Source: Psammoneis japonica (Eukaryota). From it: 64,000 nucleotides of DNA. The notes beneath the pieces were generated by a model. It ran no database searches and was not told where the DNA came from. It worked only from the letters and a program-made list of their open reading frames with translations. Made by a program: the position numbers and the translations under genes. The stretch is from positions 62,001 through 126,000 of the forward strand of contig QPGO01000012.1 in NCBI GenBank assembly GCA_008632985.1, read 5' to 3'. Below are positions 4,278-52,665 of this stretch, piece by piece (the stretch's first letter is position 1; each line of letters opens with the position of its first letter).

Positions 4278-4366
<89 letters not shown>

Positions 4367-5295: not shown

Positions 5296-5858
5296 ACTGA
5301 TAACCGAAACAAGAACGCAGACTAGTTTGGCGCACAAAACAGTGGGAAAAAGTATGGCAATCAACTCAAATAACCGAGAGGACAATCACAAGGCCACACC
5401 TGTCAGAGCAGCGACAGCTAAGTTGACAAACACTCAGGAACTCCCTGCAACTAGAACCAGTGAAAACACATGTGCTAGTAGTAGAAAAGAGGGAGTAGAT
5501 CTTGGATGGAGATCTTGACGCAGCCCGAGCTATCCAAAATGATGCCATGCGCAAGCAGTCTGACCGTGCAGGCACTTTGCACCTGGTAGAAGAACGGTAA
5601 TAGAGCTTAGCCAAATGATCCGTCCACCCGCCTTGTTCAACTGACATGCCTCGAAAAAGCCTCTTTTGCTCGCATCATGAGTCGCCCGACGGAGCCGACT
5701 CTCCCACAATTGCCGATTCGACAGAGGCATTGCGCTGACAAGGTGCCTCTAGCGCTGTGCGCAATTTTGAGCTCTTTTTCTTTCACAGGGGCTCGGCTAC
5801 TTTGCATGCGCTGGAAGAACTGTAGACCTTCACCAACTGATTCGTCGATCCGCCTTGA

Positions 5859-20039: not shown

Positions 20040-20770
20040 GTTGCAGCTCACTTTCTTTAAGTGCCGCTGCTTGCAGCCACCTTGTTCATTGCCAAAAAAG
20101 TGCAGAATGCGTTGTGAGAGTGCAATGTGGATGAACCAACACCACCAACAGGAACAGCAACACAGACTCATCGGTGCATCCGGTGCTGCCGATTCTGGAG
20201 CAGGCGAGTTTGCAGCAGCTGCTGCAGTTCTCTTTCTTGAAGAGCCACTGCCAGCACTGGCAGCCACCTTGTTCATTGCCGAACGGTGCAGAAAACGTTG
20301 TGGAGCATGGTGAAGATGAGCCAACCACAGCCAATGGAGACGTCAATGTGTGGACTTGCCTGTGCATCCAGTGCCACTGATTCCAGACCAGGTGAAGCAA
20401 CACTGCTCTGATCCACCTTGTTCATTGCAAAGAAGTGCAAAACACTTTGTGAGAGTGCACAGGACAACAACAGCAACCAATTGAAGCTGCAACATGGACT
20501 TGCTGGTGCATCCACCGCAGCCAATTCGGTTGCTTCTGCCGCCAGTTCCCGACCCCGCGAAGCCGATTCAGGACCAGCATGTGAAGCAACATTGCTCTGA
20601 CCCACCTTGTTCATTGCAAAGAAATGCAAAACACTTTGTGAGAGTGTGTGGGACAACAACAGCAACCAATTGAAACCTCGATGTAGACTTGCAGGTGCAT
20701 CCGCCACCGCCGATTCGGGAGCTTCTGCCGCCGGTTCCCGACCCATCGACATGGAGTTGGCAGCTGCTGC
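20040..20770. repeat. Four diverged tandem units (~150-190 bp) sharing CCACCTTGTTCATTGC
   Basis: Core motif at ~20077, ~20264, ~20413 and ~20602. Confidence 0.85.
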
Positions 20771-20895
20771 GGTTGTCGCAGTCAACCCCCCTGCTGCTCT
20801 TGACCACAAACAGCGGAGAAACTTGGGAAGCCTTTAAAAATGAGCCCAACAACTCAGGCAACCTCCAATGGGTTGCCTCCCCACTCTCTGCCTCT

Positions 20896-21190
20896 GCAGT
20901 CTGTCTGGGTTTGGATGTAGAAATTGGAGAAGACGGATGCAACGTAAGTGAACACATCAAAAACAAATGAAGCTCTTTTTGAGCATGCCTTTTTTGAAGA
21001 GTGTCACATGTGGCAAAGCACTTTTCACATGTGTGATTCTGAGAGCTGCAGGAACAAGCACTGCCTGCAGTCTTTCTGGGTCTGGACACAGAAATTGGAG
21101 AAGACGGATGTGTTGTTGGTGAGTGCATCAAAAACCAACGAACCTCTTTTTGCACATGCCTTGTTTGAACAGTGTAATTTGTGGCAACTT
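20896..21190. repeat. Two diverged ~120-bp copies, period ~170 bp
   Basis: GAAATTGGAGAAGACGGATG at ~20920 and ~21091 with alignable flanks. Confidence 0.85.
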
Positions 21191-33314: not shown

Positions 33315-34856
33315 CTAATAAAGGGCAGCAGCGCACATCATGATTACCCACATGAACATGCTGAGAGATGCAATGGGACATTGTTTCTTGCTGAAATTTC
33401 TATCCGCAGCATCAGATTCTGAATTGAGGCTATTGAACGATGCGTCTTGAGTTGGAACAGTGGTGGTAGGCGCCTCGGTTGCCGACGGTTTGTAGGTAGT
33501 CGGATCGATAGTGGTAGGTTTCTGGGAGAATGATGTTTCTTGAGTCGGAACAGTAGTGATGGGCTCTTCGGTTGTCGTCGGTTCAGGGGTCTTAGGATCG
33601 ACAGTGATAGGAGCAACACTACTAGTGGGGTTCTGGGATGTCGGATCGATAGTGGTAGGTTTCTGGGAGAATGATGTTTCTTGAGTCGGAACAGTAGTGA
33701 TAGGCTCTTCGGTTGTAGTCGGTTCAGGGGTCTTAGGATCGACAGTGATCGAAACAACACTAGTTGGGTTCTCGGATGTCGGATCGATAGTGGTAGGTTT
33801 TTGGGAGAATGATGTTTCTTGAGTCGGAACAGTAGTGATAGGCTCTTCGGTTGTCGTCGGTTCAGGGGTCTTAGGATCGACAGTGATAGGAGCAACACTA
33901 CTAGTGGGGTTCTGGGATGTCGGATAGGGAGTGGTTGGCGTTGGAGTAAAACTATTGCTCCAAATGCAGTTGCCGCTACAATCGCGACCAACGACCACGT
34001 TGGTGCTGCCGTCCAGAACGCCGCTACTATCGAGGGCACCTTGGCAATTGAAGGCGGTGCCGCCATCTTCGCAAATCTCACAGAAGCAGTATTGATCACC
34101 AATCTTCATCACACAAGAATGAAACATCAACGAAGGCTCCCAAGACGAGTAGGTCCAGTAGCATACATCCCTGCCAAGCACCGTCGGTCGGCACTTTTCG
34201 CACAATTCGACCGAGTTGGTCCAGACATATTCGTTGGGCGAAACCTCCACGTACATGTCATCTGGCCCATAACATTCTCGGTAACCTTCTTGCACAGGCA
34301 TGATTGCGTCGTAGAAATGTTCAGTGGGGTCGGGTGGATCTTGAAAGTAGGTACATCCCGCCTGCATATTGCAGATGCAATCATCGTTGGACAAGTCAGA
34401 ACAGGGCGTCGGAGTGCCGTCACAGAGCCCATCGAACCAGTAGTCTCCAGGAGTGAATTTGCAGCCCAAGATTGACTCACAGACTGACTTCTCGCCCCCC
34501 GAACAGAGAGCAGGAGCCGTCCCCATGCATTGTGCTGGGGATTTTGGAGCTCCCGTGCAAAAGAATCCCGTGGAAGACCATTCCTGATTGGGTCCAAAGG
34601 TGCAACCATCTTGCTTATGACATCCCAAGCTGTCATCCGAAAAGAAGTCACAGGGGGTAGGGTTTCCCTCGCAGCTACCATAATAAGTGTTGCTGGGGGT
34701 CGCTGGGAGCCAGATACATCCGTCGACAGCTTCACAGATAGATTTGACATGGCCACAGCACCCAGCTGGGTCTCCCGTACAAAGTGCATGTACCGAGACG
34801 GGTACCAAGTTAATACTCATCGTTAGCAGACAGATGAATTCTTTTGAAAAGATCAT
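33315..34856 (-). CDS. Secreted Cys-rich protein with Thr/Pro mucin-like stalk and probable GPI-anchor signal
   Basis: Signal peptide; duplicated Cys module; three 46-47-aa T/P repeats; hydrophobic C-terminus. Confidence 0.8.
   Translation of the reverse strand: MIFSKEFICLLTMSINLVPVSVHALCTGDPAGCCGHVKSICEAVDGCIWLPATPSNTYYGSCEGNPTPCDFFSDDSLGCHKQDGCTFGPNQEWSSTGFFCTGAPKSPAQCMGTAPALCSGGEKSVCESILGCKFTPGDYWFDGLCDGTPTPCSDLSNDDCICNMQAGCTYFQDPPDPTEHFYDAIMPVQEGYRECYGPDDMYVEVSPNEYVWTNSVELCEKCRPTVLGRDVCYWTYSSWEPSLMFHSCVMKIGDQYCFCEICEDGGTAFNCQGALDSSGVLDGSTNVVVGRDCSGNCIWSNSFTPTPTTPYPTSQNPTSSVAPITVDPKTPEPTTTEEPITTVPTQETSFSQKPTTIDPTSENPTSVVSITVDPKTPEPTTTEEPITTVPTQETSFSQKPTTIDPTSQNPTSSVAPITVDPKTPEPTTTEEPITTVPTQETSFSQKPTTIDPTTYKPSATEAPTTTVPTQDASFNSLNSESDAADRNFSKKQCPIASLSMFMWVIMMCAAALY
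33500..33925 (-). repeat. Three near-identical coding tandem repeats (~138-141 bp)
   Basis: ITVDPKTPEPTTTEEPITTVPTQETSFSQKPTTIDPT x3. Confidence 0.95.
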
Positions 34857-35954
34857 GGTTTTCCCATCAAAGAGGAGTGCATTTACTTTAGGTGTTCACT
34901 TGTCCGTTGATCGTGGTACAACTTTAAACCAGCACTTACTTGTCGTTTGAATGCTTAGAGACTGAGAAACGTAATGCAATTCACATTCCTTTCGAGGCGC
35001 ATTCTATTTTTTGCAGGATCAGATTTATCGTATGTGGGGGTAGTTTAGAGAGAAGGCTTCTCGTTCGTTGGTGAATTTGAGAACGGCGCGAACTTCGAGG
35101 AGATTCCTTGTGCGCGATGGAAAAATTCCATTTCAGCAGTCACGAATTCCTTCGATGACCCGCAGACACAAACATCCGCAATGAGAGCCCCGAGCGAGTT
35201 CCAATCCAGAAGAATGCCACTTGCGCAAGTGATGTCATGTCCCACACTTGAGTGGCATGCATCACGCCGAGCCATCCATCTCATTGCACTCTCACACCTG
35301 AGCATTGTGTGGCATGGGCTGAGAAGCACACACAGCAAGAAGAGAGCCAAGGTGTGCTGAGCTGGCTGAGAAGCACACGCTGAAAACATCTGCAGAGAGA
35401 CCAAAATGCAGCACAGGCATGGTTGGAATTTTTTCCTCATGTCAACTGAGCATTTCCCATGACATGGATGGCAGCCATTGGCACACAAGAGGTGTCCGCC
35501 TGGACACAAGAAGCACTGCACGTGCGCCAGAGCAGCGGCCCACTTGCAAAAACTCAGGCTTTGGTGTCACTGTTGGGCACAGCCAAAAAATGGACTTTGC
35601 TCCCAGACCAAATGTGCACAGTGGAAGTCATTGGACTTGATTTCCACATTTGGACAGGCAGCATGGGTGGCAGCACTGCATTTGGCGGCTCTGGTTGTCG
35701 GGCTGGCGCTGTTGTGCGCGGGCGTTCTTCATCACAGCTGCTCTGCCTCAAAGGTCAGGCACGCTGCACTTTGGCCTTTTTTGCCATTGGTGCCACCAGC
35801 ATGAGAGGACAATTTGAGCTCAGCTGACAATTTCAGTGACACACAAGCAGGCCAGCAACAAGTGCTCAGCAGCAACCTCTCAACGAAAATGGAGACAACA
35901 GCAACCACTGGACCCACAGCAGCAAGACAACAAAACCGGTTGATCTGGAGAAGC

Positions 35955-36124
35955 TTGCAGACTAGCAGTGTCGGGACAATCTAATGGACATCCAGGACAG
36001 ATGATAATCGTGTGCTAGATGAGAAAGAAAAGTGAGCAAAGGAGAGATCATCGGATCTCTCCATGCTGTCTGTGCCAGTCTGTCCGACACAAGGGAGTGT
36101 GCTCCCCATCTCGGATGTCTGTCA
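35955..36124 (-). repeat. 3' LTR
   Basis: Colinear with 42862-43031 (19 mismatches in 170 by my count); preceded on the minus strand by a polypurine tract. Confidence 0.95.
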
Positions 36125-36133
36125 CCCTCCCCT
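36125..36133 (-). other. Polypurine tract AGGGGAGGG
   Basis: Abuts the 3' LTR. Confidence 0.85.
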
Positions 36134-39100
36134 GATGAGCAATGCAATGCTCAACAAGAAAGAAAGAGACGATCCGAACAAAAAGAGAGGACCAGAGTGG
36201 CAAAGAACAAAACAAATAAAAAAGAGACACACCCAAGACTCAATCCACAACAAACCCGATGACAATCAACGGCAATGTCCCATCAAACGGTGGGCATGGC
36301 GGGAACGAAGCATCCAACCCACAGCCTTGGTCAGTGCATCAGCAGGGTCAATGACACCCGGGACATGTCAAGTGACAATCTTGCCTGCGTCATGCCAGTC
36401 TTGGATGGCAAAATGTTGAGTGTCAATGTGGCGGGATCGCTCCGCAGGCACCTTGTCATTGATCATCTGGATGGCAGAGGAGCCATCAATGTGCGAGGGA
36501 GTGGGGTCACGTTGAGGAAAGCCCAATTCTTCCAGAATCATGCGGAGGTGCAGGGTCTGTTTCGCTCCAGCAACAGCTGCGAGGAACTCAGCTTCTGTGG
36601 AACTGGCAGCAGCAATTGTCTGCGTGCGGCAACGACGATCAATTGCATCACTGGCAAGGACATGCGCGTGTCCAGCAGTGGAACGGCGACGCCACAGTTC
36701 ATTGGCATGTGCCGCATCAATGAAACCAAGAAGTTGGAAAAGGTCATCAGCACGAGGGAAGTCTGGGAGAGATGGGTCATCCTCAAGCCATTCGAAATCG
36801 CGAGGAGGCAGACCGGGATCGCGCTTGGACTTCTTGTGCGTCAGTCCCCAATGTTTGGTGCACCGCAAATGCTTGGCCACATGCTTGAGTGAATCACAAT
36901 GAAGCTCAGCCGGGGCCTTGGAAAACTTGGACAAGGTGACAATGGGATGGCCAATGTCCAAATGACAGCAGGAGCAGGCAAAGACCAACTCACCCAGAAG
37001 AGAATGGCAAGAGAAACCCTGGGACTCAGCGAGAGTGTCACACTCAGGAGCACCCTCTTCAGGACCTTCAGCAGCACACAGATCAGGGACACAATCAACC
37101 AAAATAGGTGCAGCCTTGAAGTCAGAGTCAGATTCATTTGCAGTGGGAGCATCCCAACCATGGGTCTTGAAAACACGATCAAGGCAGCTGGCAACGTTGA
37201 CAGCAATTGAATCGTCATTTTGAATGACATCCTCACCATTGAATTCAGTGACCAAGCCCAAACACTTGAAGGGAGGAGCATCCTCATTCTCCATCTGGAG
37301 AGCCTTGCCAATGTGGTCACAGATCTCTTTTGCAATCTTTTTGGAGGGACAAGCAAGAGCAAAATCATCGACCTGTCAAAGGAGAAGGACCTTGACACCA
37401 TCATGTTCACCAGAATGGATGCACTTGTCATGAGCAGTGTTGCGGAAAAGAAGTTTCGCACCCGTTGGAATCGAATTGATGTGCTTTTCCCAAAGGACAC
37501 CAGCTTCAGGGTGACCTTGAAGAGCACGCTTGAGTGGGAGAACACAGTGGCGGGGCACTTTCTTGCCAAATCTCTTTTCACACCATGCAGCATGTGCATC
37601 ATCAACAGCAACAAAAACCGGCTGTGAAGGACCAGGAGAATGAGCGCAGGCATCTCAAGCATCACCACCAAAGACACGATGCAACACAGCTGCACTGAGA
37701 GCAAAAAACATCTTTTTGATGGAGCGTTCCACACACGACGAATGGGTGGAAGTCAACTTGTGCAAGGCCGGCATTGCTGACTTGGAACCATCACCACATT
37801 GCCGAGAACAAAGTTGTCCATCTGGCTTTGCCATGCAATCCCAATGTGGCCGCATGACGTTCACACCAGGGGGACATGGTTGTGGAGGACCATGCATGCC
37901 AAGGGCACAAAATTGATCCAATTGATGCTGCTCGCCTTCTTCCCATTCAGGCCATGTGTCAAGTTTACAAAGCTTGGCACGGGTGAGGCGGTAAAGAGCA
38001 GCTTCCTCCGGAGTGAGAGAGCAGGAGCTAATCGCATTGAGGTGTGCATGGAATGCGTCCACAGGGATGGCCTCATCCGAAAAATCATCATCAGGACAGA
38101 GAAGGGTCACAACAGATCGCACATCTTCCAAAGTGAGTTCGGGAACATGGGAGTCATCCTCCATGGAGTCAGGTTCAAATGACTCCGCTTCCTCAAATGC
38201 CTTGTTAAGGGTGCGGGAATCCAATCGTCGTTCCGGTGCAAAAGCAATCTCAAAGGTCGGGATTTCATCATGAAAGACCTGAGACAAGGCCTCTTCAGCA
38301 TCCGATGGGGTAAAAACTTCACGCTTGTTGACAGAGACAATGCATGCACCCACAATCTTGTTGCAAGCAGCATGGAGGGAAGAGAATGAGGATGCCGCAG
38401 GACTGTGCTGCTTGATTTCCAACACATGGACATGGTCCATTGGTGCACACTGGGAAAATCCAAAACCACAGGTGGGGTCCTTTGGGGGGCGTTTCATGGT
38501 GCATGCAACAGTCGTTGCAAAAGGATTCAATGAAGAGGCAAACACAGGAACAGTGGTGTCCTGTGTTTCAGCTGGAAAAGGCTGACCATTTTCCGCACGC
38601 TGCAAACGGATGGCATTGGGAGGAAGTTGATCCAAAAATGGATCATTCATGCCTTCATTGCAGTGCACATGTTTGGCCGTCTTGACTTTGTCAGTCTCAG
38701 GATCCCACCACATGACATTCTTCAGGGTGTTTGGAAGGCAACCAAGGAATGCGCCCTTTTTGGAATTGGTCCGGAAGGTGGCAGAACGAGCAGTGGACCG
38801 TTTGGACCACACTCGACATCCGAAAGTCTTGAGAGCAGCAAAATCTTCGACCTTTCCGGTGGCAAGAGTGATGGGTGCCGCATCTTGATCTTTCGCAGGA
38901 GTGGCATTCTTGATGCGGAGGTGATGGTAAAATGCACAGGGCCAGAATCGAAACAGAAGGTTGGCGCCAATTAAAATTGCACGAATCGCGTTTTCAACGG
39001 TTGAATGTGAGCATTCAACAGGTCCACATTGGTTGGATGCGCCAGCGCCAGAAGGACAGATGTCACACTGGAATTCTCATTCAAAGAGGTCACGAACTTT

Positions 39101-42100
39101 GGGGGTTTTGCATGATTCCCCACCTTGGTCCACAAACACATGTTTGTCACAACAATTTGGTGAATGTCGATCCAAGAATCGGCAAAGCCACTTGAGAGGA
39201 CTGGCTTTGGAAACCCTTGCCACTCCATGGAGCATCCGTGTGTGATGATCGTAGACAGTGATCCAACACATTTCACCATCACATCCAAGATGATCAACCT
39301 TGCGGTCTTCATTCTTGGAAGTCTGGCCAGCAAAAGCAAAATCTACAGTGAGACCTTGGTGTGGCTGGGTTGCCTTCCGAGTCATGTTCGGTCCAGCAGG
39401 AGTCTTGACTTGCTTGGCTTGGAAACACACAGGACATGTGTCAAGGACAGGATTGGCATGTTGGAACTTTGGGATGCCCTTGACATGCTTGTGAGCATTG
39501 TGCAAGCAGTGATCACTGGGATGTCCAAGGTGTTGATGCCACAGAAGACGTTCAGTCTCAACTTTGAGAGAGCGGACAGGAGCAGAGGTAGACAACGGAG
39601 GGGAGACATGGGGAGCCAAGTCACACTGCATCAAAAACAGCTCAGCATCCATCAACAAGGGATCAGATGGACTTTGTTGGACATTGACAAAAAAGACTGC
39701 ACGTTGACATGCATCATCAACATCATCAACCAAGGACAAGTCAGGGGTCTTTGATGTTGAAGGGACACAAGACGCAGACAGAGGAACCAGGGGTTGTGTG
39801 AAGACCTTGCCATGTCAAAGTGTGCCATGGACAACTGCCTCTTGAGCATCAGTGGAAGCAGTGCAAGCACAAGTGCCATCGGCGCATGTCTTCTCAAGGA
39901 GCTCGGAGCGAATGGACTGAGGTTTGAAACCAGAAGCCCACGCAAAACCACATTCATCAATCAAAGTGGAACGCAGGCTGGGATGGCAAACGGTGCGTGC
40001 AAGAAGAAAACCTTCAGGATTGTCTGCAGGCACCTGCAGACAACCAAAGCCATGAGGGACCACATCAGAGCCTTCAGCAGCAGGAAGCATCTTCAAAGGA
40101 CAAGGGTTGTCCAGTCCAAAGGGAGCATGGGCATGGAGGAGGTTCTTGTCCCCTGTGCAGGACACCCAAGCACCAGCATCAATCTGTGCACGATGTGTCG
40201 TTGAATCACGAAGTGCGTGATTGATGGGAATGACTGGAGCAGTCAAGGATGCAAAAGTCGTAGGTGACTCCGGGGGAGAAAAAATTGGGGAGATGCGTGT
40301 GGCACTGAGAGGCGACAAATGCTGGGTGTTGGTCACATCAAGATGCTCAAATTCTTGGTCTTGATCAGTGGACAATGGGACATCAGCATCCAGTGTAGAA
40401 AGGTCTGGTTCCCTCCCCTGATTGTGATTGCCAGGGTCATCATCAGGAATCGTCTTGGGATCTGGAGTGCCAGCCTTCGTCGAGCCCGAAAGAAGGTCAG
40501 CAAATGATGCAGGTGAAAGAGGAACATCAGCGGAAGGCAACGAGTCGGTTGGACCCACTTTCAAAGTTGCCCCGCTTGCAGGAGTTTTCGGATTGGAGGA
40601 GGATGGGTGGCATTGTTCATCCGAACATGACAATGGCCCCAGAAAAAATCCTTCTTGGACGTGTCAGACTTGAGTGCATCACGAGCACGCTGATCACATT
40701 GGAGGAACTGGGAGAACCGAACAAGATGAGTGCGCAGGTGCTCAGCATTGTTCAACACAGGACACTCATGGAACAAGTGGTTGTCACCACAAACAACACA
40801 TGGACGATTCTGTGCAATGGCAGGAGAGGACTTGATCCTGCAGATGCAGGCCTTGTAGATGCCATGGAGGGCCTGTGCATCATCATCTGCAGGGACATCT
40901 ACAGCAGCAAGTTCACTCACAAAATGCTCCATGGTTTCCGCAGGTTCTTCCGCAGCAGGAGGTTCAGGTTCCTTGGGAGGCTCCTCAATCGCTGGAGGCA
41001 GAGGAGAGACTTCATCTTTGGGAAGTGAGTCAAGACCTTGGATGGGAGCTGCGAGAGAAGGAGCAGGCGAAGTGTGAAGACGATGTGGAGGACATTTGGG
41101 AGGGTCCTTGACACGAAGAGCAGGACCATCCAGTTCCTTGAGAATCTCACTGACAGTTTCAACAATCTTCTTCTGGGTGAACTTGTGTTGTTGGTTCTTG
41201 TCTTCCTGGGCATCCGCTGTTTTACAGTGAAGGTGCTTGCCACAGCGGGTGTTGCTGAGAAAAATGTTGAGCTCACCAGGGTTGTCAAGAGAGGCATCAA
41301 CATTGGAGATGACAGCTCGTAGCTGGAGACAGTCTCTGAATGGAGCACAGTGGCTAAGGACCGCAAGATTGTTTTGGTGCGGGCAGCTCTTGATCAACTC
41401 ATGTGGACGCTTCGTCCAAATCGGCAGGATGTTAAAGAGAATCATCTTGACAGCAGCACATCCATCACCATGGCATTGACGAACAATGTCAGGGTGCTTG
41501 GAGTCTGCCGGAAAAATTCCAACTTTCTGAATGTGCTGGAAGACAGTCAGTTTCATTCGGTCAAGTGCTGCTGTCATCCAGAGAGGGAGATCATCGGTTG
41601 GGTCATTGCCACAGGTGAAACCCCAATTTCCACCATCCTTGATAAAACACCACAGAGGGTGCATGTGTGTGCCACAAGCCGAGGCTTGTTGGGCTGCAGC
41701 AGTGTGCCATGCACGAATTCCTTGAGGAGAGATGTCATCACAAGTGAGGGGGTCACGAAGGAAAGACTTTGCATCCCAGTCAGTGCGATGAACGAAGAGA
41801 GAACCATCAGCAAGGATGAGACGCTCAGTGCCATCCTCGTGATGAAGGTTTCCAGACTTGCAGGGTGCCAGAGATTTTCTGAGTGCTGCTTTCCCGGCTT
41901 CCTTGCATTGACAGCGGGCTGGCACATCCTTTGGGGAAGTCCTTTTGGATTAAAGGTGTGTGATGCGCTGGCAGCAGTCAAGGAAGAAGCCGTGCCAGCA
42001 GCAGTCATGGCAGACGGTGCAGGAGATGACACCGTGGGAGCAGAGTTCTTCAATGCATTTGTCACAGCTTGCTCAAACTGTTTTGGACCAGGCAAATGAG

Positions 42101-42851
42101 TGGCTGAGGCCTTGGCAAAGTCTTCAGGAGCAGGACCTGCAGCAGCAACCGGTGGAGGTGCAGAACTTGAAGCAGCTGGTGGGTCTGGATGCGGATCATC
42201 GGAGACATCATCCCAGAAATCACAACACCAAAAACGAGGGCTGAAATGGAAACGTAGAGTCCCAACACACACATGCATGGCATCGTCGTTCTCTGAGATC
42301 GCCTTGATCACAGTCTTCTGAAGAGCACTGAGGTTCAGACAAACTGGGGGGCCTTGAGGGGTGGCCACAAAGAGAGGAGCCTTCTCAATGATCAGTCCGA
42401 TTCATGCAAGATCTTTGGTTAAGATGGCTTCAGGGATGATGAGATTGTGAACGATTTTGTGTCGGAGGACAGCAACAGCGTCGCTCTTGAGGCCTTGAGG
42501 GGCAAATCCATCCAAAAGATCTTCAGGAGCAGGGATCTCGTCCAAACAAAGGGCATTCAGGAAAGCATGGGCATCGGGCAAGCGATCATGTGGGCTGAAT
42601 TCAACCCGTGTCGTCTTGATCTTGGTCAAATCGATGGTGTTTTGATTTTTGTTCACCATGGTTGTGCAGGAAAAAAATCAAATTCCTGCACAGAGCTCTG
42701 GCATGTGTTCTACGGTGGTCGTTTGATCACAAATCGAGAGGTGAAAAAACAGCTGTGACAATGATGATAATTTCAATGAAGAAAGGGTTGACAAATCACA
42801 CAGCAGGAGTTGCAACAGAGGAGCACAGAGGAAGAGGAACAGCACACTGCT

Positions 42852-42861
42852 GCTCACAACC
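42852..42861 (-). other. Primer-binding site, half-tRNA-iMet (Ty5/copia) type: GGTTGTGAGC
   Basis: Immediately follows the 5' LTR; one mismatch to GGTTATGAGC. Confidence 0.75.
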
Positions 42862-43031
42862 TTGCGGACCAGCAGCATCGGGACAATCTGGCTGATGTCT
42901 AGGACAGATGACAACCATGCACTAGATGAGAAAGAAAAGTGAGCAAAGGAGAGATCATCGGATCTCTCCATGCTGTCTGTGCCAGTCTGTCCAACACAAG
43001 GGAGTGCACTCCCCATCTCGGATGTCTGTCA
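42862..43031 (-). repeat. 5' LTR
   Basis: Colinear with 35955-36124; followed on the minus strand by the PBS. Confidence 0.95.
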
Positions 43032-45589
43032 GAAGCCTCTCCAAGCTTCAGCAAAAAGTCTGGAAAGAGCTCATTTTCTTGACAAGCCCCATGGCTTTGT
43101 GAGCAACAAGTGTCCCAGAGGACCCCAAGCAAGTGGCTGGGAAAAGTGGCATTTTTGCTTGCAGTTGTTGACTGAACAATGAAATTTTTTTGTGGAACTC
43201 TGATGAACCAGATCTGTCTGACAGCAATTGGCGCTGTTTTTTGAACAATTCAGCAGGATTTGTGTCACCAATGTAAAAACAAATCCATGAAATTCTGCTG
43301 TGTGGAGTGTCCAAATGATTTGAGTGACATTGAATGGAGTCATGCAAATGATTGTTCACATTTGTTGAAAATGGATTGACAAGCACATGAAAGTCATCAG
43401 AGTGATGTGCTCTGCTCCATTTTACAATGTCCAGGGAAGAAAAGAGGGGAGTTTGATCTTCAAGCATCCACAAAGTCAGTGCTCCTGGATCTTAAAGACT
43501 GGCTGACATTTGGGTTGTGCTCACATGTCTGCTGAGTGAGGTGGCGCATCCTTCTGTTGGCCAACACAGCCAAGCCACAGAGTTGGCCACCAGCAGCATT
43601 GCTGCCCCCCCCCCCCCCCCTGGCAGGACTCAGCTGCACTGATGCATGGAGAACAAGAGTTTGTGGTTCTTTCTACAGGAGCAGTGCCAATGCCACACAA
43701 CCTGCTTGTGTTTTGCATTTTTTGCTCTCTTGCTTTTATGAAACAGCAGTCAGTTGGAGAGCACCTCTGTCCCCTGTGACCACATGGGCAAAAAATCATG
43801 TGTGCATCAACTGTTGTGACTGTTGCCACAAGCAACTTTTCATGCAGTGCTCTGTGCACACAAACCATGTGTTTGGGCCCTGGCAATTGTGGTGTGGATG
43901 TGCTGTTGTGGGAAACAAGAGTGGTGAAGAAGAGATGACTCAAAAGCAAATCAAATGCCAGAGACCAACAATTGAGAACTGAAAGAAGCAAAACAGACCA
44001 GACAAGGCAGCTGATGGCAAGTGGCTGGTGCAAAAGAGACAAGCTTGAGTTGGTGTGATCTCCACAAAGATGGCAGGCCACATCAGGGTCAAAAATTGCG
44101 TGCCAAGTTCTTGCAAAATTGAGTGTCAGTGGCAAGCAAATGTTGCTGTTTTCAAAGTGAAAAACATGTTTGGAGTTGCAAGTGAGTGCACTTTTCCATT
44201 GCTGAACAGAGCAGCAGCAGGTGCAACATGCGACAGCTCTTGTTTGGTTTCTTGCCCCAGTGTGCTGCAGAGAAGAACCACAAGTCAGCCAAAATGCACA
44301 AGAAAAGCCACAAGGTGACAACAATGAACAGAGCTGAGCAGCACACATGTCCACAACATGGGTTTTCTCACCCAGGGTTTCACTTTCACAGACACGTGTG
44401 CAGCACTCCACATGTCCCTGCCTCTCAGCACCCTCATTGCCCAGTGTGTGCTGGCTGTGAGAAAGCAACCTCATTTTGCCTTGCCTGCCATGGATTTTGC
44501 TGCCACCCAATTTTGTTAAAGTGGAGCTCATTTGCAGATGTTGTTTTGATTTCAGCCTTTTTTCTTCAAAGCAACACAGAGGACATGCACTTTGCAAAGA
44601 AGGCCCAGTTGTGCACTGTGCACCACACCACTGCAAAGCTCAGGCACTCCTCTTCTGCACAGCATGAAGCCCACTTTGTGGGGATGGAGGTTGCACATTG
44701 TGTGACTTCTTCACAGTGTCACCATGCATGACTTGCTTTGAGCAGACTGTGACTGGGCTGCCCTTCACAAGCACTGAGCACTTGCCTGTCTTGGCAGCAA
44801 TGTTCCTGCTGTTGTTCTTGGCTTCTCCATCTTGGCAGCAGTTCTTGGAACTTGGAAGAAAGAGTGAGGTGGGGGCTTTCTGCACAGTTTGACATGTCTA
44901 GCCCTTCACAAACACTGGCTTCCTCATGGCTTGGATGACCTGCTTTTTTTGCTGCTGGCACCCCAAGGAAGGCCCAAGTGGTGGCTGCTGCCTCCCTTGT
45001 TGTTGCTGCTGTCCAAAACACACTTCTTCTTCTCCTGTTGCAACTGCTTCACAGCCTCCTTTGCTTTGTCTGCTGCCTTCTTCTCAGACCTTTTATCATG
45101 GCCTTCTTGTGCAAGCTCCCAACACTGCTTTGGTTTGCAACATTGAAGAGAAAATGTCACTCAGTCATGCACAATTGCCCTCTGTTGCTCACTGCCTTCT
45201 CTTCTGTTGAAGCCAGCACTTTCTCCACACTGTTGAAGCCAGCACACTCCCCTCAGAGCTTTCTGAGGTTGGTTGTGGCACAAGTCATGAGAAATCAGAC
45301 CTCAAGATGGAGCTTGCACATGTGGCAGGAAACCTGGAGATGAAGCTCTGGGAAGAGAGCTGCAAGGGTGGGTGCTGGTGTGAGCAGCAAGAAGCAGACT
45401 TGCTCTCTGCCCGTCAATGTGCAGCACAACACATTGACAAAAAAAGACTTGTGGTGGCTTGTTCTGGGTGCTCACAGTGTGCAACACTGCCTCCATGTGC
45501 AACCACATCGACCACAGAAGCAGCTCACAAGCAAAGCTGTTGGTTTTCTTCAATCTGTTCTGAAGTTTCCTCCACCTCCTTCTCTTTGG

Positions 45590-46400
45590 TGTTGCCTTTC
45601 ACTCCATGCCTCCTTCCATCTTTGTTGAGGCTCCATCCCATCATTGTGCACTGTGTCAGGTTGGGGCAGCAACAGGGCATTGTCAAGTCATGCGGCAGAC
45701 CAGCAAAGCATTGGAGTGCAAAAGGGAATGAAATGGTGTGCTGTCCAAACATTTCATGACAACACAAAGCAACTCATGACAGCTTCAATCATGCACCATT
45801 GAAGTCAGCAAGCAACACATGATCAAATCAACCAAGTGACTCCATGTTGCAGTTGTTTGTCTCAGCAATGCTGAGCACACTTGAGATCAAGGTTTTGAAG
45901 TTGATGCAGAATTGTGCAGCAGGTGCTGGCATCACACAGAGCTTGTTTTCTGGTTTGCAGTCAACAATTGTGTGCAGCAAAATGTGTGTTTGTGCATTTG
46001 CTCCATGCCTTCTTCCACCTTTGTTGCTGCACCCTCTGATTGCTGTGTTTGCTTGGAGCAGCAACAGGGCATTGTTGAGTCATGTGGTGGGCTGGCAAAG
46101 CATTGGAGCAAGTGCAAGAGGGAGAGAAACACTGTGTTGTCTGTGAACATTTTATGATGCACAAAGCAACTTCATGATCATTTCAACCACATGCCACTGA
46201 AATCAGCAAACAATGCATGATCAAATCAACCAAGTGACTCCATGTTGCAGTTGTTTGTCTCAGCAACACTGAGCATGCTTTGCTTCAAGATTTTGAAATT
46301 GATGCAGAATTGTGCAGGCACTGGCATCATGCAGAGTTTGTTTGCCAGTCTGCAGCTGACAATTGTGTGCTGCAAAATGTGTGTTTTTGCATGTGGAAGC
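45590..46400. repeat. Tandem duplication, period ~398 bp
   Basis: CATGATCAAATCAACCAAGTGACTCCATGTTGCAGTTGTTTGTCTCAGCAA at ~45818 and ~46216. Confidence 0.9.
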
Positions 46401-49400
46401 TCCTGTTGCACAACATCCATGTCTTGAACAATGGCGCACTGCTCATTTGCTGTTTGTTTGGGTGCCCAAACAGTGGCACCACAACCCAACCCCCCTGGCA
46501 ACACAAAGTCATCAGGGTTGACACTTTTTGCTGTGGCATTGCAGACATGGGGCAACTGCAGTTAGATGTGGGGGGTGTTTTTCCAGTGGGATTGCTTCTG
46601 CCCTGCAAGCCTGCACTTGGCAAGAGGCAATCTAATTGCACTGAGATGGTGTGATTTTGTCTGGCAGTCAAGCTGACAAGAGACATTTGCTCAACTCACT
46701 TAAATGACAAAATTTTGGACTCAAGTGATCCAGCTAAAAATCCAAGGAAGGGTTTGATGGACAGACCAGCACCAATCACTTTCGTGCAATCCATTGTTGA
46801 AACTTTAAAGCAAGCCTGGTTTTTCTTTTAAAATGAGTTTCAGTCATCTGTCAAAACTGCTCCATGATGTGATTGTTTCTGTGGTGATCCCATTTTCCCA
46901 TTTTTGCTCTTTTCTGTTTTGCATTTTGGTTGTTCATTTTTGTTCTCTGGTGGACTTGTTTCCAATCTTCTTTTGCTCACATGGCTTTCATGAAGGTTGC
47001 CTGGAAACTGACAGAATGGATTTTTTGTTGATGGCACATCTCTTCTGCACAGTGTGAGTCCAGGCAGAAGGGAGCTGGACCCAGCAATCATGAGCCCCCT
47101 CACTTGAATTTCATGCTCAAGCTCATGTTCTTGCTTTTTGCCACAGCACAGGACCCCCTTGGTGCACTTTGAGCAAGAAGGGGGCCAACAAAATGGCTGT
47201 CAGAAGCTGTTTTGTGGCCTGACTCTGAAGCTCCATCAAAAACATGTTCCAAGCTGGCCATGCAAGACTGTGCATGAGCTGTGGTGCCTCTGTTTGCGGT
47301 GATGACAACCTGACTTTGCAGCCAGTGCACAGGGCAGAACAGCATTTTCTTTCTTTTCAGACCATGTTTCTTGCACAAAAGTGAGAAGAACGTTGCAGTT
47401 GTTGCCCTGTGATCTTTTTTTTGTGTGGTGCACAATCTGCGCATGTGACAAGGCATGCCCTCAACATCAGTGCCCTGATCTCCTAAAACTTTTCTCAAGC
47501 TTCCAGCTTGTGCATCCCTGCAGCTGTCATTTTGCCATTTCACAGTCTCTTTTGCAAGCTCTGGCAAACATGGTCCTTGCTGAATCTGTGCCCCCCCCCC
47601 CCACCTCCCCGCCAAGTCTGACAAAACATTTTTGTCTCTCCAAACTGCACACAACCCAGCAAGTTGTCCACACAAATCAAATTTGCTGTTGTTTGCCAGC
47701 TGCACCCAATTGGAAGAAACCCTTGCAGAAAACAACAGGTGAGCTGCTGCAACTCCAGGGCTCCAGGGATGATTTTGCACTGAAGTGCACCAAGTGTGCG
47801 CTGTTGATGAATTGTGCCCTTTTTGCATTGGCAAACAATGTTTCATCAACAATCAACAGTGCAGGTCAGGACCAATGTCTCTCTGCTCATTTGCAGTCCA
47901 GGAAGAATGCAAAGTTTCCAGCTTTGTTTTTTGTTTTTTGGGTCCTGGGGTTTGTGCACAAAGCACTGTGCACCATCTCACCAAGCACGTGCTGCTTTGC
48001 AACAACACTGTGCCTGGCAATTTCTTGCTCAATCAAATTGCAAAACCTTGGTGCACCATGTGTGCAACAACATTGTTGCTGACATGCCTGTTCCTGGTTC
48101 CACCCACCCAGGCAAAAAGCATGGGTGTCAGTGTTTGGAGTTTTTTCTGCCAGGAGATGCAAACCCTTGAGCTTGCACAAATCTAACTGCCGCTCAGCAA
48201 GAGCACTTCACGCACAGGACGTGGGGTGATCCTGCATGTGCAACTGGTTGGCACATGCTGAAGTGCAAGCTTGGCAACAACACGTGCTGGAAAGCTTGCT
48301 TCTGCTTTTTTTTGCCCCTCTCCAGCCCATGCACTCTTGACATGTGTCAGAGCTGGGCTGGTCTGACAGCATGTGCTGCTGTGCTGGTCAATTTAATTTT
48401 CTTGCAGAAGAGGCTTCCAGCAAAGAGTTTGTGCACCTCAAAATGTCTTGGCTTTTGCCATCATGTCTGCAACTGCCAGCGTGTTTAACAGCATTGTGCC
48501 AGTGACAGAGATGCCACCAAAGGTGCTGAGAAGGGGACTTCTTTGACTTGTGTCTGCATTGTTTGATGATGCTCTTTGCATTTTTGTTCATTTGCATCAC
48601 ATGTTTTCTGTGTTGCACTCCACACAAGCTGCAAATTTGCTTGAAGATGTTCCAGGTTTTGGTTGGTTCATTTCTTTTTCACAGGCAAGTGGGGTCTGTG
48701 ATCATTGTTTCAATTGAGTTTTGTCACAAAACTCCTGTGTCACAGTTTGCAAACCAAGACAATGGCACTGAAGGCAGCTCTCTGTTTGATCATGACCACC
48801 AAGGGTCTCATTGCAGCAGCACATCCTCTTGCTGTGTTGTGGCCCAAATTTTTGGCACACCCACAATGTGTCAAATTTTGTGAGGCAAGATTTTGGAAAC
48901 AAGCACATGCTTGGTTTTCTGCTGTGTTCATTTTTGGTCCTGCAGGGTGTGAACTGGGCTTGTTCACTCTCCAAGCACAAAACCGCAAGTCAGCAAAAGT
49001 GCAACAAGCACCCGGCAATTTTCTGTCTCTCCACCCTCAACTGTTGCAGCAGTTTGATGCTGTGCCTGTGCCATGTCAACTGGCCTGCTGAGGAACATGG
49101 GTCTCTCTACTTGGTTCAAGCTGGAATGAAATTTCTGCGTCATTGCCAGCAGAATTGTCCTTTGTGAGATTGGCGCTGTGCTGGTCTCCTCTGGCACTTT
49201 GGAGCCACCACTGGCAGTTGTGCCAACAATGCCAGAGACGCCAGTGGTGCCAAAGGGGGTGCTCTGTAGTGCCAGTGCTCAGGAGAAAGGGAGACATCAT
49301 GGTGACTTCTCTCTTTTTGCACCTGCCACCCAGCTGCCAGTGCATTTCCTGTGTCAATTTCTGTGCAAGATGCTTCAGCACCACTTCTGCAATTTGATTG

Positions 49401-49560
49401 CAGTTTCTCACTCATTGCTTCATTTCCCACCCTTTCTTTCCAGTTTTGCAAATTTTCCTTCCTTGCCTTGTTTCTGTGGATTGTCAAAATTCATCCAGAG
49501 CAAAACAAAAACTTCCCTTTGCTGTTTCTTTTCACATGTCACTGTGAAGGGAAATCCCCC

Positions 49561-49592
<32 letters not shown>

Positions 49593-49897
49593 GTTTTTAT
49601 GGCAAACTCTGTGCACCAGATTCCTTTGACAACACTTCAGTTGCACCACATTTCTGGAGCAATGCAACCTTTTTGAACAAGATCCCAAAGATGGGCACAT
49701 GTCCTTTTTTCAACATTTTGTTTTTGGTGTCTCCCAAGCCACTGGGGGGTGTGGTTGTTGGGATTTTTCCATTCTTTGAGCACAGTCAGCTGTGTGAAAA
49801 ACACCCAGCAGATTTCCTGTCTTGACTTGAAACACAAAACAGATGGATCATTCAATCAAAAATTCCTGCCGCACTGTTTGGTGTGCTGGGGGTGTGG

Positions 49898-49985
49898 GTC
49901 AATCTGGGGCTTGGGTCTGGACATGACAGCTGTTTGGTGTGCTGGGGTGTGTGTCAATCTGGGGCTTGGGTCTGGACATGACAGC
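49898..49985. repeat. Two copies of GTCAATCTGGGGCTTGGGTCTGGACATGACAGC
   Basis: Directly visible. Confidence 0.9.
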
Positions 49986-52665
49986 ACTTGAAACATTGCA
50001 GACTTTTAATTTTGATGGTCCAAGTTGGTGTGGGTGACAGAAAATGATTGAATGGTTGACACTTTTCTCCCCCAGTTGACACGAGGTCTTTTGTCTTTTC
50101 TTCTGCCTGCTCTGCAAAATGGCAGAAATTGTTGAGAGAATGCAAGGAGCCACAATGTCACCTGCACCATTTCCACATGACATCCTTTGTTGTGTTGCAG
50201 AATTGTCTGTCTTTTGCATCATGGGCAAGTCAAACTCTCTGCATGTCAACAGCAGCAAATGCATTGTTGACTTCTGTCATGAGGTCAGACAGCATTTCAT
50301 CATTGGATCCATCTGTGATCTCTTTTTTGACACAGTTTTGCCATTCTTTTTTCTTTCCCTCATCAGGATTGACCAGTGAAATCCTCTTTTCACCAAGTGG
50401 CTCAGGCACTCTGAGAGCACTCAAAAACTGTTTGGCAGCTGTGTGTGCATTTCTTTGCAGTTTCATGCCAAAGCAAGAGTCAAGTCATTCATTTTTGGTG
50501 TGAGCCATTTTGTGACTTCAAGTGACACAACCCCTCAATTTCATGTGTGTTGTCAGGACAAAAGCTCCAAAACACCAAAGATGTGGTTTTCTGATGACTC
50601 ATTTTCCCAGCCAAGCAGCTGCCATCATTGACATTTTCTTCCAAAAACATGTGCCCCCTTGAGACAGTTTTCATGCCACCATGTGGTGCCAAGTGTTGTG
50701 GCACACTGACAGAGCAACAACCTCAATGGCGTCTCTGTGAGACACACTGAGACCAGCATGTGAACATGCTGGTGAAAATGCACATCACACCATTGCTTTG
50801 ACCAAAGAGCCCACCAGCCTCAGAGACCCCCCATTGGGCCAGGGTGGCCAGCTTCTTCTTGTGAGATTCTTGCTTTGTCAAATTTGTCAGAGTGTCCTCA
50901 TCAACTGACCCACTGGACTTCATAAACAGCCCACTGCTGATGAGCTGTCTGGGGGCAACATTCCCAAACCTCTGAATTTGCAAGGTTGTGAGCACTTGCA
51001 AACACATGCCTGCTGGGCTGGGAGCTGGAGCTCTGTGTCAACAACTCCACAGTGTGCTGCTGCACACCACAGAACAGGGAAGTTAAAAATCAAATTACCC
51101 TCAGCACTTTGTTTGGCATGAGGCAAAATCTCTGACAATTTGGTTGGAGAGGAAAATCAGCTTCCTTTTCACATTGCTTTTTAAAAAGCAACAAAAGGCC
51201 ACTGTCGCACACATCAACCAGCAGCTGTTGCCCCCTCATGCTGCTGTTGAGCAGCAAGTGACAATGTGGTCATTGCTAACGGCTACAATTTGAGCAGTAA
51301 AACAGAAGACCATGCAAAGACGACGCACAAAAAAAAGATTCATTTTTTGCCTTCATCTTTGACGTCTACTCTAGAGGGACTAGGTCTAGGACTACCGGTA
51401 CAGTCAGCTTTCTCACGATGAAGTTTATTTGCCACGTTGGAATCTTTTTACTTGCTTGCGCTCTTTGTGAAGCGCTTGAAGCGACAGGTGAGCGAAATCC
51501 TTTGATCTTTGATGATGCCGTGTTGCGAAAAGGACGCAATGGCGCCTTCTTGCCTTAATTATTTGTGTCTTCTTTGAAAACGCCTGTTTGACATGTCTTT
51601 CGTACCTCCCTTGCCCTTGTAGTAGATACAACGTCAATGGGACCGAAGGATGGCGATTCCTCCTCTACGATGAATTTGCGAGTAAGTTTCTTTTTGAAAA
51701 AGAACCAATGGTGTTGTTCCAAGCCTCCATCTGTCTTTCTTTTGTATTTCCTCCATACTCACGACACCACCTCCTTTACACTGTGCTCTATTGTTTCTGC
51801 TGTGCTTCTTGCTGCATGCTATTTTGTAGCGCGCACTCAGCAGCGACAGCAGTGGCAGAGATAGCAGCAGCAGCAGCGACATCAGCAGCAGCGATGTGGT
51901 AAGCACTGTAAGTAGTCAGCCAAGCCATTCTCCGATTGTACATTGTCTCTCAATCCTGCAACCAACACTTTCCGCCTTTCTGTCTTCTGTTCTCTTCTAA
52001 CACAGGGGCGAAACTTCAACACCGTGAGTAACAGCACTTTAAGCCAGTTTGGACTCATGCGTCAGAACTGAATCTCGTCGCTCACTCTCTCTTCTTTCCT
52101 ACTTAAACACCTAGCCATGCTCTGGGGATTCAGATTGTGATGAAAGGTTTGACTTTTGCAGGGATGGAAGATGGTGAGGTTTGAATGCTGCTCGTCTATT
52201 TTGCCAATTCTTTTGCAACAGGGATGTCTCATCGTTAAGGAACAATCTCACATTTTAATGTGTCATCTTTTCTAGCGTATGGAAGTATTTCAGCGGATCT
52301 CGTTGTGACCGTGATGCTCAGTGCCGGAGCGGTTGGTGCGATCTAAACTATACTCAAAGGAACATATGTTCGGATCCATTGTCCTCCGGTGCATTCTGTA
52401 CCAGGAATGAGCAGTGCCGAAGTGGCCGATGCAACACGAACATCCTAGTCTTACAATGTGTCTAGGTATATCCTGGTGTTCCAAGAAATGGAGAAGTTTT
52501 GTGGTTGTGCATATTTTGGTCGAAAAAGTATTAAATGTTGTTGCAGTCTAGCACTATTATGTTCATCCAGTAGAGCCTTGTCCGGCTTGCCATCCCTCCG
52601 TTCCTACCAATGAGTATATTAGCCGGCGAAAAGAGATGAAGGTTCATCAAGCATTGTGTTTGGTA

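Follow-up and report, generated by a model that had tools for sequence, protein, structure and literature searches.

How can a retrotransposon lose nearly every tyrosine of its polyprotein and retain a long reading frame collinear with those of its relatives? The question is raised by a Copia element in the genome of the diatom Psammoneis japonica, located in a stretch of 64,000 nucleotides (positions 62,001 to 126,000 of the forward strand of contig QPGO01000012.1, assembly GCA_008632985.1) that is hereafter called the window and provides all coordinates given below. We propose, with a probability of roughly 0.7 for the statement as a whole, that this is a dead Copia element whose DNA became the target of TpA-directed transitions after integration, and that these transitions were produced by an adenine deaminase acting in genome defence. 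The descriptive part of the statement, a dead element and TpA-directed transitions, is hardly in doubt; the part that invokes an adenine deaminase and genome defence stands at slightly better than even odds.

The element is a full-length, dead Copia-type retrotransposon with long terminal repeats (LTRs) that occupies about 35955-43031 on the minus strand and is nested in an older degraded block. The relevant features of its pol gene are as follows.

36266-40663, minus strand: pol frame (P0001), 1466 codons, with the order protease, integrase, reverse transcriptase (RT), RNase H
36368-37375, minus strand: tyrosine-free RT/RNase H open reading frame (ORF), 335 aa from stop to stop, 308 aa from the first ATG at 37294
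39815-39817, 39077-39079, 37655-37657, 37376-37378 and 36368-36370: in-frame TGA codons of pol, the last one near the frame end
36266-36268: likely natural stop of pol

A Pfam search with P0001 identifies gag_pre-integrs (residues 367-418), SH3_retrovirus (603-670) and RVT_2 (1041-1167), so that the integrase-side domains precede RVT_2 as is typical of Copia; the relatives carry PF13976, PF07727 and PF25597. The RVT_2 match scores 15.8 bits, under the cutoff of 31.6, and no Pfam match to the integrase core is detected in P0001. The relatives, Copia polyproteins about 1400 aa in length, have their named members in Nitzschia inconspicua, Cylindrotheca fusiformis and Fistulifera solaris, with 45-53% identity. 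The protein P0002 aligns with residues 1-1427 of P0001 in a single tblastn segment, and pol is therefore free of frameshifts; the lack of a frameshift in 1427 aligned residues fits a burst of point mutations rather than slow decay.

According to the original prediction, which considered the 308-residue version of the ORF, no tyrosine is present in it, and the positions that hold tyrosine in other Copia Pol proteins read cysteine or histidine. The 335-residue version contains no tyrosine either, and the whole of P0001 contains only 3 among its 1466 residues (0.2%), along with 4.3% cysteine. In 44 relatives, tyrosine accounts for 2.4-4.5% of the residues (3.3-4.5% in most) and cysteine for 1.1-2.1%; from this composition about 50 tyrosines are expected in 1466 residues, which excludes chance. 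In a MAFFT alignment with the 44 relatives, where a column was considered conserved if at least 70% of them have tyrosine, none of the 32 conserved columns retains tyrosine in the element: 16 hold cysteine, 10 histidine, 3 phenylalanine, and one each proline, tryptophan and arginine. Intact relatives do not generally carry the same residues: at 24 of the 26 cysteine or histidine columns no relative shares the residue of the element, which occurs in one relative at one of the remaining columns and in seven at the other. The same alignment provides a control, in that the conserved tryptophan, glutamate and glycine columns are mostly kept (15/15, 23/24 and 53/57, respectively). Tyrosine has disappeared even from six columns where it is invariant among the relatives that have a residue there (44 of 44 in five of these), and from others where it is found in 42-43 of 43-44; the three tyrosines that P0001 does possess are all in columns where the relatives have none. 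Five of the six motifs cited in support of the prediction hold up, namely GFSCHSLLGEL (GFsYRtLLGEL in the relatives), DIGHPI (DIGYAv), AKHLRCTK (AkYLRrTk), RRSTAGH (RRSTTGY) and LWHQHLGH (LWHQRLGH). The sixth, RHIDTQHF, does not count as a tyrosine loss because most of the relatives have histidine as well.

Polarisation of the codons against the conserved columns (702 columns, 199 of them changed and 144 of these reachable in one step) reveals the DNA changes that underlie these replacements.

A>G: 41 changes, 33 with a 5' T
T>C: 20 changes, 15 with a 3' A
C>T: 11 changes, 8 with a 3' G
G>A: 21 changes, 11 with a 5' C
Transversions: 36 changes, no rule context

Conversion of TAY to TGY or CAY, which had been put forward as a TpA rule, is a dominant class, and the conversion of CGN to TGN or CAN, proposed as a CpG rule for the replacement of arginine by histidine or cysteine, is the other. 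The direction of change had been claimed to be fixed by protein conservation, and pairs of related DNA sequences described below agree (74, 79 and 82 conversions of TA to TG or CA, with 4, 0 and 4 in reverse). The replacement of tyrosine by cysteine or histidine is the protein-level shadow of TpA hypermutation. It had further been suggested that the process disables elements by missense rather than nonsense changes. This is accurate for the TpA rule, which destroys TAA and TAG and makes no stop, and accounts for the long collinear pol frame despite dozens of missense changes; the CpG rule, in contrast, has added nonsense changes. There are four premature in-frame TGA codons in pol and one more near the frame end; the TGA at 37376-37378 occupies a column with arginine in 43 of 44 relatives, and two further TGA codons are found where arginine is the commonest residue. 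Among the conserved arginine columns, 28 of 54 are kept, whereas 6 have changed to histidine, 4 to cysteine, one to tryptophan and one to TGA. With four to five premature TGA codons and none of the 32 conserved tyrosines, the element is not autonomous.

The depletion extends to the DNA of the entire element and beyond it. The element contains 32 TA and 209 CG dinucleotides in 7076 bp, and the TpA density of its interior is about 3 per kb, compared to 24-47 per kb in related pol DNA. Examination of the window in 1-kb bins delineates three TpA-poor blocks, 24.8 kb in total, which are sharply bounded and sit among normal host genes.

1896-5300: TpA-poor block, 8 TA in 3405 bp, CpG-poor, no Pfam-recognisable coding
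18082-23452: TpA-poor block, 24 TA in 5371 bp, CpG-poor, no Pfam-recognisable coding
35047-51083: TpA-poor block that includes the Copia element

Within the blocks there are 88 TA in 24,803 bp (3.5 per kb), compared to 1,481 in the remaining 39,197 bp of the window (37.8 per kb). The dinucleotide rho is 0.01-0.12 for TpA, 0.03-0.61 for CpG and 1.3-2.2 for TG and CA inside the blocks, versus 0.37-0.85 for TpA and about 0.8-1.2 for CpG outside. At the block edges the change in TpA is sharp, within about 200 bp, and that in CpG more gradual. The edge zones 35047-35950, 23145-23452 and 1896-2100 have no TpA, with CpG near normal or moderately reduced; the domain devoid of TA reaches past the core that is poor in CpG. 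Only TGA stops remain in the TA-free blocks, which results in many false ORFs of 100-470 aa in all six frames (35047-51083); none of the 55 ORFs of at least 110 aa in 1896-5300, 18082-23452, 35047-35950 and 43037-51083 has a Pfam match at E<=0.01. At the start of the block 1896-5300, a frame (P0242, from about 1836) contains the P-loop motif GPPGCGKT and yields only sub-threshold P-loop matches in Pfam; the presence of this frame in the block hints that the TpA process may also hit inserts other than Copia.

An active lineage that shuns TpA and CpG, with cysteine and histidine as functional replacements, could likewise display a long pol frame collinear with its relatives, and avoidance of UpA and CpG is common among RNA viruses. 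Such adaptive avoidance is barely credible for this element, given the four to five premature in-frame TGA codons, the loss of tyrosine at columns that are invariant in relatives, and the collapse of RVT_2 to 15.8 bits along with the missing integrase-core match. Furthermore, the non-coding LTR, the flank and the unrecognisable neighbouring blocks are equally depleted, and in the environmental sequences considered next, partly converted copies occur beside normal ones at 86-91% DNA identity.

The footprint recurs in Copia loci from environmental DNA. A profile scan of metagenome contigs yielded 423 confirmed relatives, of which 80 were kept; together with five loci on contigs of metagenome-assembled genomes (MAGs), these make up a set of 85. 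The pol DNA of these five MAG elements has a TpA rho of 0.41-0.76 and a CpG rho of 0.83-1.23, compared to 0.05 and 0.48, respectively, for pol in the window. The median TpA rho over the 85 loci is 0.65, and the depleted loci are L083 (0.10), L070 (0.24), L063 (0.28), L047 (0.28), L049 (0.32) and L009 (0.36). Five to six of the 85 loci share with the window element the conversion of TA to TG or CA and of tyrosine to cysteine or histidine. Three depleted loci were paired with normal partners at 86-91% DNA identity, with the following fates of the TA dinucleotides of the partner.

L070 (depleted) and L050 (normal): 39 to TG, 30 to CA, 35 kept, 4 reverse
L083 (depleted) and L048 (normal): 46 to TG, 32 to CA, 12 kept, 0 reverse
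L063 (depleted) and L040 (normal): 50 to TG, 31 to CA, 24 kept, 4 reverse

The corresponding protein footprint was scored at the tyrosine positions of P0002 and is given here as kept, cysteine and histidine.

L083: 2, 16 and 5 of 29 tyrosine columns
L070: 6, 9 and 8 of 32
L063: 6, 14 and 11 of 44
L047: 9, 22 and 5 of 50
L050 (normal): 33, 1 and 3 of 51
L040 (normal): 24, 1 and 1 of 36
L006 (normal): 36, 0 and 1 of 48

L048, the partner of L083, is partly affected too (11, 8 and 2 of 30 columns). L047 and L049, on long contigs of two metagenome records, are 99.95% identical over 6170 nt and thus represent the same depleted copy, which implies stable inheritance of the depletion within that population. 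L001, L004 and L005 (from one MAG), as well as L002 and L003, are eukaryotic Copia sequences on contigs of bacterial MAGs (Alphaproteobacteria, Lamprobacter, Afifella), which looks like binning contamination by algal DNA.

Unlike the TpA changes, the conversion of CpG to TG or CA is symmetric between the copies: 27 versus 23 for L070/L050, 41 versus 45 for L083/L048 and 34 versus 22 for L063/L040. The original prediction had treated the two rules as a single process; the TpA changes in these pairs are one-directional and copy-specific and those at CpG symmetric, and the TpA process is therefore separate from CpG decay. A single enzyme system could nevertheless be envisaged, either an ADAT2-like deaminase that acts on both A and C or a RID/DNMT4-like pathway combined with an adenine activity, and indeed the TpA and CpG losses coincide in the same blocks. 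ADAT2 enzymes are reported to deaminate A and C in DNA, as cited in bioRxiv 10.64898/2026.01.13.699255, and, according to PMC9998398, DNMT4 is present in many diatoms and is related to RID, the fungal enzyme of repeat-induced point mutation (RIP). However, apart from the behaviour of the three pairs, the loss of TpA is complete where CpG is largely kept (32 TA and 209 CG in the Copia element, 0 TA and 31 CG in its flank, and likewise in the edge zones), and in the alga Bigelowiella natans a similar process shows, according to the same preprint, no G/C>A/T component, so that a common enzyme system appears rather unlikely.

Whether the changes arose before or after integration can be judged from the ends of the element.

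35955-36124, minus strand: 3' LTR, about 170 bp (start at 35955 or 35956, an uncertainty of 1 nt)
42862-43031, minus strand: 5' LTR, about 170 bp, partner of the former
35950-35954: left copy of the target-site duplication GAAGC, adjoining the outer side of the 3' LTR
43032-43036: right copy of GAAGC, directly after the other LTR

The direct repeat 35951-36124/42858-43031 has 89% identity, and the LTR pair with the 5-bp duplication GAAGC on both outer sides is in accord with a Copia insertion. An ungapped comparison of the LTRs at offset 6907 identifies four double differences of TG versus CA, three of TA versus CA, three of CG versus CA, one other T/C difference and one complex 4-nt difference. 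A TG-versus-CA pair implies that a palindromic TA or CG was altered on opposite strands in the two LTRs. Outside the LTR, the flank 35047-35950 contains 0 TA and 31 CG in 904 bp, and its read depth of about 52 is that of single-copy DNA, the same as in the host flank; this TA-free flank is interpreted as a spread of the TpA process or, alternatively, as an older insert.

Further evidence comes from contigs of the runs X1 to X3, which represent one sample and possibly the data behind the window assembly. A 1602-nt single-copy X1 contig spans 34500-35987 and carries the TA-free flank, and it differs from the window at six positions of the host flank within 34677-35041, each of which is TpA in the window and TpG or CpA in the contig (A>G at five of them, on one strand, and T>C at the sixth). 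Among the differences listed for this contig, none between 34500 and 35046 is a non-TpA change; an X2 contig is identical to the window over 34500-34915. In the host frame 33315-34895, the X1 version results in the changes Y71H, Y72H and V31A and in two synonymous ones. This frame, on the minus strand, encodes 526 aa with a Cys-rich N-terminal half and Pro/Thr-rich tandem repeats with a 141-nt period at 33487-33938. The process acted after integration and beyond the element.

The Copia family itself is multi-copy: the summed word depth is about 950-2200, compared to about 52 in the flanks, or about 20-40 times the single-copy depth, and the TA-free flanks are single-copy for matches of at least 90% likeness. 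Of the 274 places, tallied by kind of change, at which contigs depart from the window, 249 are transitions, in all four directions, as predicted by independent conversion of each copy.

The multi-copy state would also be compatible with RNA editing before integration, whereby double-stranded RNA formed by sense and antisense transcripts is hyper-edited from A to I and reverse-transcribed, so that the copies are born mutated. Editing by ADAR, like the ADAT-based editing of mRNA in fungi, produces A-to-G changes with a 5' U/T. A modest excess of TG over CA on the sense strand, observed in three environmental copies and in the window element, points in the same direction, and the 5' preference of ADAR is quoted in the Discussion of bioRxiv 10.64898/2026.01.13.699255. 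Nevertheless, this explanation is distinctly unlikely, because the LTRs, which are identical when integrated, differ mainly by rule-type changes including the four TG-versus-CA pairs, the 904 bp with 0 TA beyond the LTR have single-copy depth, and the two versions of the unique host flank differ at six TpA sites.

The pattern might also be an error of assembly or base calling provoked by modified bases in heterochromatin, and some long-read data do contain systematic base-calling errors at methylated motifs. This appears highly improbable: 625 of the 2613 X1 contigs match the window at 99% or more and the 1602-nt contig has the same TA-free flank (although the assembly may itself derive from X1), independently assembled metagenome contigs from several projects show this footprint as well, and, as stated in the preprint on B. 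natans, the footprint was measured there in Illumina-sequenced mutation-accumulation lines.

The TpA mutator prefers T-A-Y. In the three partly converted pairs, the mutated fraction depends on the next base (TAC 94/187, TAT 70/161, TAA 30/98 and TAG 32/148), and YTAR is retained in 51% of the cases versus 12% for RTAY. The 88 residual TA of the TpA-poor blocks of the window comprise 44 YTAR, 26 RTAR, 17 YTAY and a single RTAY, and 16 of the 88 are in TTAAA. Strand-symmetrised triplet frequencies relative to the background are 0.03 for TAT, 0.06 for TAC, 0.09 for TAG and 0.23 for TAA, with TGC and TGT the most enriched products. The tyrosine codons TAY alone always hold TpA in the preferred context, hence the change of all the tyrosines to cysteine or histidine. 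The excess of TG over CA on the sense strand is modest (39:30, 45:32 and 49:31 in the environmental copies; 773:629 in the window element) and can be explained by context alone because every sense-strand TA in frame belongs to TAY, so that it does not require an edited transcript. The least mutated context, TAG (32/148), is the best triplet of ADAR, which favours a 3' G; thus, the features expected of an ADAR-type process, an origin before integration and a preference for 3' G, are contradicted by the affected LTR pair and unique flanks and by the low rate at TAG.

The base that is hit could, in principle, be thymine. Under this alternative, T in TpA of silenced DNA is oxidised or otherwise modified (to 5-hydroxymethyluracil or a base-J-like derivative, by TET/JBP-type enzymes) and mispairs with G or undergoes error-prone repair, resulting in T>C. 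The footprint is symmetric with respect to the strands (16 changes from tyrosine to cysteine and 10 to histidine, with both TG and CA gained), such that sequence alone cannot name the base, and in dinoflagellate DNA 5-hydroxymethyluracil preferentially replaces T in TpA. On the other side of the balance, we know of no report of such modified T bases in diatom DNA, and the U-A-C of the tRNA substrate of TadA parallels the T-A-Y preference, whereas to our knowledge there is no parallel for the complementary R-T-A preference. Altogether, modification of thymine seems fairly improbable.

The scenario that we favour is thus one of adenine deamination in integrated DNA. After insertion, the element and the surrounding DNA underwent near-saturating, locally targeted transitions from TpA to TpG or CpA, that is, A-to-G changes on either strand with a preference for T-A-pyrimidine, and a slower, ordinary decay of CpG to TpG or CpA, as expected for methylated transposons, runs alongside as a separate process. 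Ancestral tyrosine codons (TAY) turned into cysteine (TGY) or histidine (CAY) codons, and arginine codons (CGN) partly turned into histidine, cysteine, tryptophan or stop codons, so that dozens of missense changes destroyed the protein with the frame remaining long and collinear. In view of the transition type and the B. natans precedent, the putative agent is a TadA/ADAT2-like enzyme that would deaminate adenine in DNA to hypoxanthine, which is read as G, with T>C resulting from the same reaction on the other strand; the deamination would be aimed at silenced or foreign DNA as a form of genome defence.

Several points weigh against this scenario or parts of it. The chemistry is deduced from the type and context of the transitions, and the environmental loci are assumed, from homology alone, to come from diatoms. 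The relatives that stand in for the ancestor have only about 50% protein identity, and 36 of the unambiguous one-step changes are transversions; ordinary divergence is therefore mixed in. Individual differences between contigs and the window are itemised for only 40 of the 274, with 25 of them in the TA/CG-to-TG/CA classes and 15 in others. Alleles, strains or a paralogue could account for the two versions of the flank, and the direction of change between them is presumed rather than polarised by an outgroup. TpA is better preserved in the LTRs, with 4 and 2 in about 170 bp each, whereas the interior has about 3 per kb, so that part of the interior mutation could predate this insertion. Finally, there are no strand-coordinated runs of TG or CA in the window blocks (z from -2.9 to +0.6, similar to background segments) or in the three pairs (z from 0 to -1.3), although a processive enzyme acting on single strands might be expected to produce them. 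With these points taken into account, the transitions are one-directional and TpA-specific, affect the integrated DNA of some copies, reach beyond the element and are independent of CpG decay.

The remaining features of the element and its immediate surroundings are the following.

36125-36133, minus strand: putative polypurine tract CCCTCCCCT (plus-strand letters), on the inside of the low-coordinate (3') LTR, with a function suggested by its position
40561-41949, minus strand: 462-aa open frame of gag, out of frame with pol
43037-51083: older block holding the Copia insertion, 24 TA and 29 CG in 8047 bp, no recognisable coding domain

The gag frame has 31% identity to the N-terminal part of the Fistulifera protein P0030. 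The older TA/CpG-free block contains a tandem duplication of about 395 bp at 45651-46395 (82-84% identity), and many of the visible differences between its two copies are transitions. A tblastn search of the window with eight Copia relatives as queries detects no Copia element besides this one, and a search of metagenomes for close copies, with P0001 as the sole query, produced 27 pattern matches of which none was confirmed. The neighbouring frames in the window encode ordinary eukaryotic proteins; for example, the closest matches of a Dcp2-like frame are sequences with about 60% identity and those of Fragilaria crotonensis with 56-66%. A contig that joins 35897 to 43433 was considered as a candidate empty-site allele; this reading was dismissed on the grounds that the ends of the contig disagree with the borders of the LTRs and that the overlap with an X2 contig at this place is limited to 57 nt. 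The joining X1 contig omits the Copia element together with about 60 and 400 bp of its flanks, and the X2 contig shares only 35841-35897; the joint is probably a short repeat common to another locus rather than an empty site.

If the scenario of adenine deamination is correct, diatoms, the second most abundant marine primary producers, carry a DNA-editing defence against mobile DNA, with a signature opposite to that of fungal RIP, known so far from a single report on the unrelated alga Bigelowiella. Dating by LTR divergence is invalid for such elements: the LTRs here have diverged by 12%, and rule-type changes account for about two thirds of the bases concerned. Annotation is affected as well: the false ORFs in six frames of TA-free blocks mislead gene finders, and Pfam-based transposon annotation misses such copies, with RVT_2 under the cutoff and the other blocks without any match. 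Through the spread into flanking genes, host proteins may acquire clustered replacements of tyrosine by histidine or cysteine, among other changes. The quest for the enzyme has a concrete target in the environmental pairs and the T-A-Y preference, and a naturally occurring deaminase that acts in this way on adenine in DNA would also be of interest for base-editing research.

Among the known systems, ADAR and APOBEC edits of animal retroelements arise on RNA or cDNA prior to integration, are strand-specific and become fixed by retrotransposition. They resemble the present case in forming deaminase-type clusters of transitions in LTR retroelements and differ from it in that here both strands, the LTR pair and the unique flanks have been hit after integration, with TAG the least favoured context. 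Decay of methylated CpG fits the CpG component: in many diatoms, transposons carry DNMT5-dependent CpG methylation (PMC9998398), the CpG rho in the blocks is 0.03-0.6, and the likely equivalent loss of CpG to TpG or CpA takes place in the same blocks and is symmetric between related copies. It covers, however, only the change of arginine to histidine, cysteine or stop and not the tyrosine loss, and the DNMT4/DNMT5 background accordingly bears on the CpG part only. The RIP of ascomycete fungi is similar in that transitions are introduced at the DNA level after integration, without indels, copy by copy and with a leak into unique flanks, leaving a dinucleotide footprint. The chemistry is different: RIP consists of C>T mainly at CpA and creates TpA and many stops, whereas in the window TpA is destroyed (rho 0.01-0.12 in the blocks), TG and CA are enriched rather than depleted, and the main process is stop-free. 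The affected DNA here includes both a multi-copy family and single-copy flanks, and in Bigelowiella, according to the preprint, a single-copy viral insert is hit.

With the diatom CoDi Copia lineages (Maumus et al. 2009), the element shares the Ty1/Copia type. A search by terms of that paper (PMC2806351) returned nothing relevant on transitions, hypermutation, RIP or dinucleotides, and our literature searches, together with such term searches of PMC2806351 and 10.1101/2025.10.24.684338, yielded no report of TpA-directed hypermutation in diatoms.

The closest parallel is the process described for B. natans (Mettrop et al., bioRxiv 10.64898/2026.01.13.699255, 2026). Mutation-accumulation lines of that alga yielded 231 mutations in two integrated regions of viral origin; 230 of these were A>G or T>C, all at TpA, with rates about 1000 times the background, and an ADAT2-like adenine deaminase and a role in genome defence were proposed; the TpA-poor coding sequences are enriched for reverse transcriptase and DDE domains. 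The two cases have in common, to judge from the preprint, changes of TpA to TpG or CpA only, on both strands, in integrated foreign DNA (of giant viruses and virophages in Bigelowiella), and TpA-poor domains rich in CpA and TpG. In the diatom, too, the changes are A/T>G/C at TpA (33 of 41 A>G and 15 of 20 T>C in the codon polarisation; 74, 79 and 82 versus 4, 0 and 4 in the pairs) and are confined to three bounded blocks, with a spread of about 0.9 kb into the flank and six polymorphic sites farther out. The differences concern the host, a chlorarachniophyte (Rhizaria) versus a diatom (Stramenopiles); the targets, mainly single-copy viral inserts with an about 2-fold depletion (TpA rho 0.45) as reported in the preprint versus LTR retrotransposons and unrecognisable blocks with a 10-30-fold depletion; and the evidence, de novo events measured there versus events inferred here from sequence, with the two versions of the flank in one sample as the sole hint of ongoing change. 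The words 'CpG', 'trinucleotide' and 'diatom' are absent from the text of the preprint, and its two passages on 'strand' do not mention spreading into flanks or a wider sequence context. That diatoms possess an active, RIP-like but chemically distinct DNA adenine editing at T-A-Y that acts on silenced transposons and other inserts independently of CpG methylation decay, spreads to host genes and there, too, replaces tyrosine by histidine or cysteine, is the same system as that of Bigelowiella and represents an old immunity of the SAR (Stramenopiles, Alveolata, Rhizaria) supergroup is a tentative proposition whose chances fall a little short of even. The locus extends the Bigelowiella signature in host (diatoms), in targets (LTR retrotransposons and flanking host genes), in degree (near-saturation) and by a defined +1 context.

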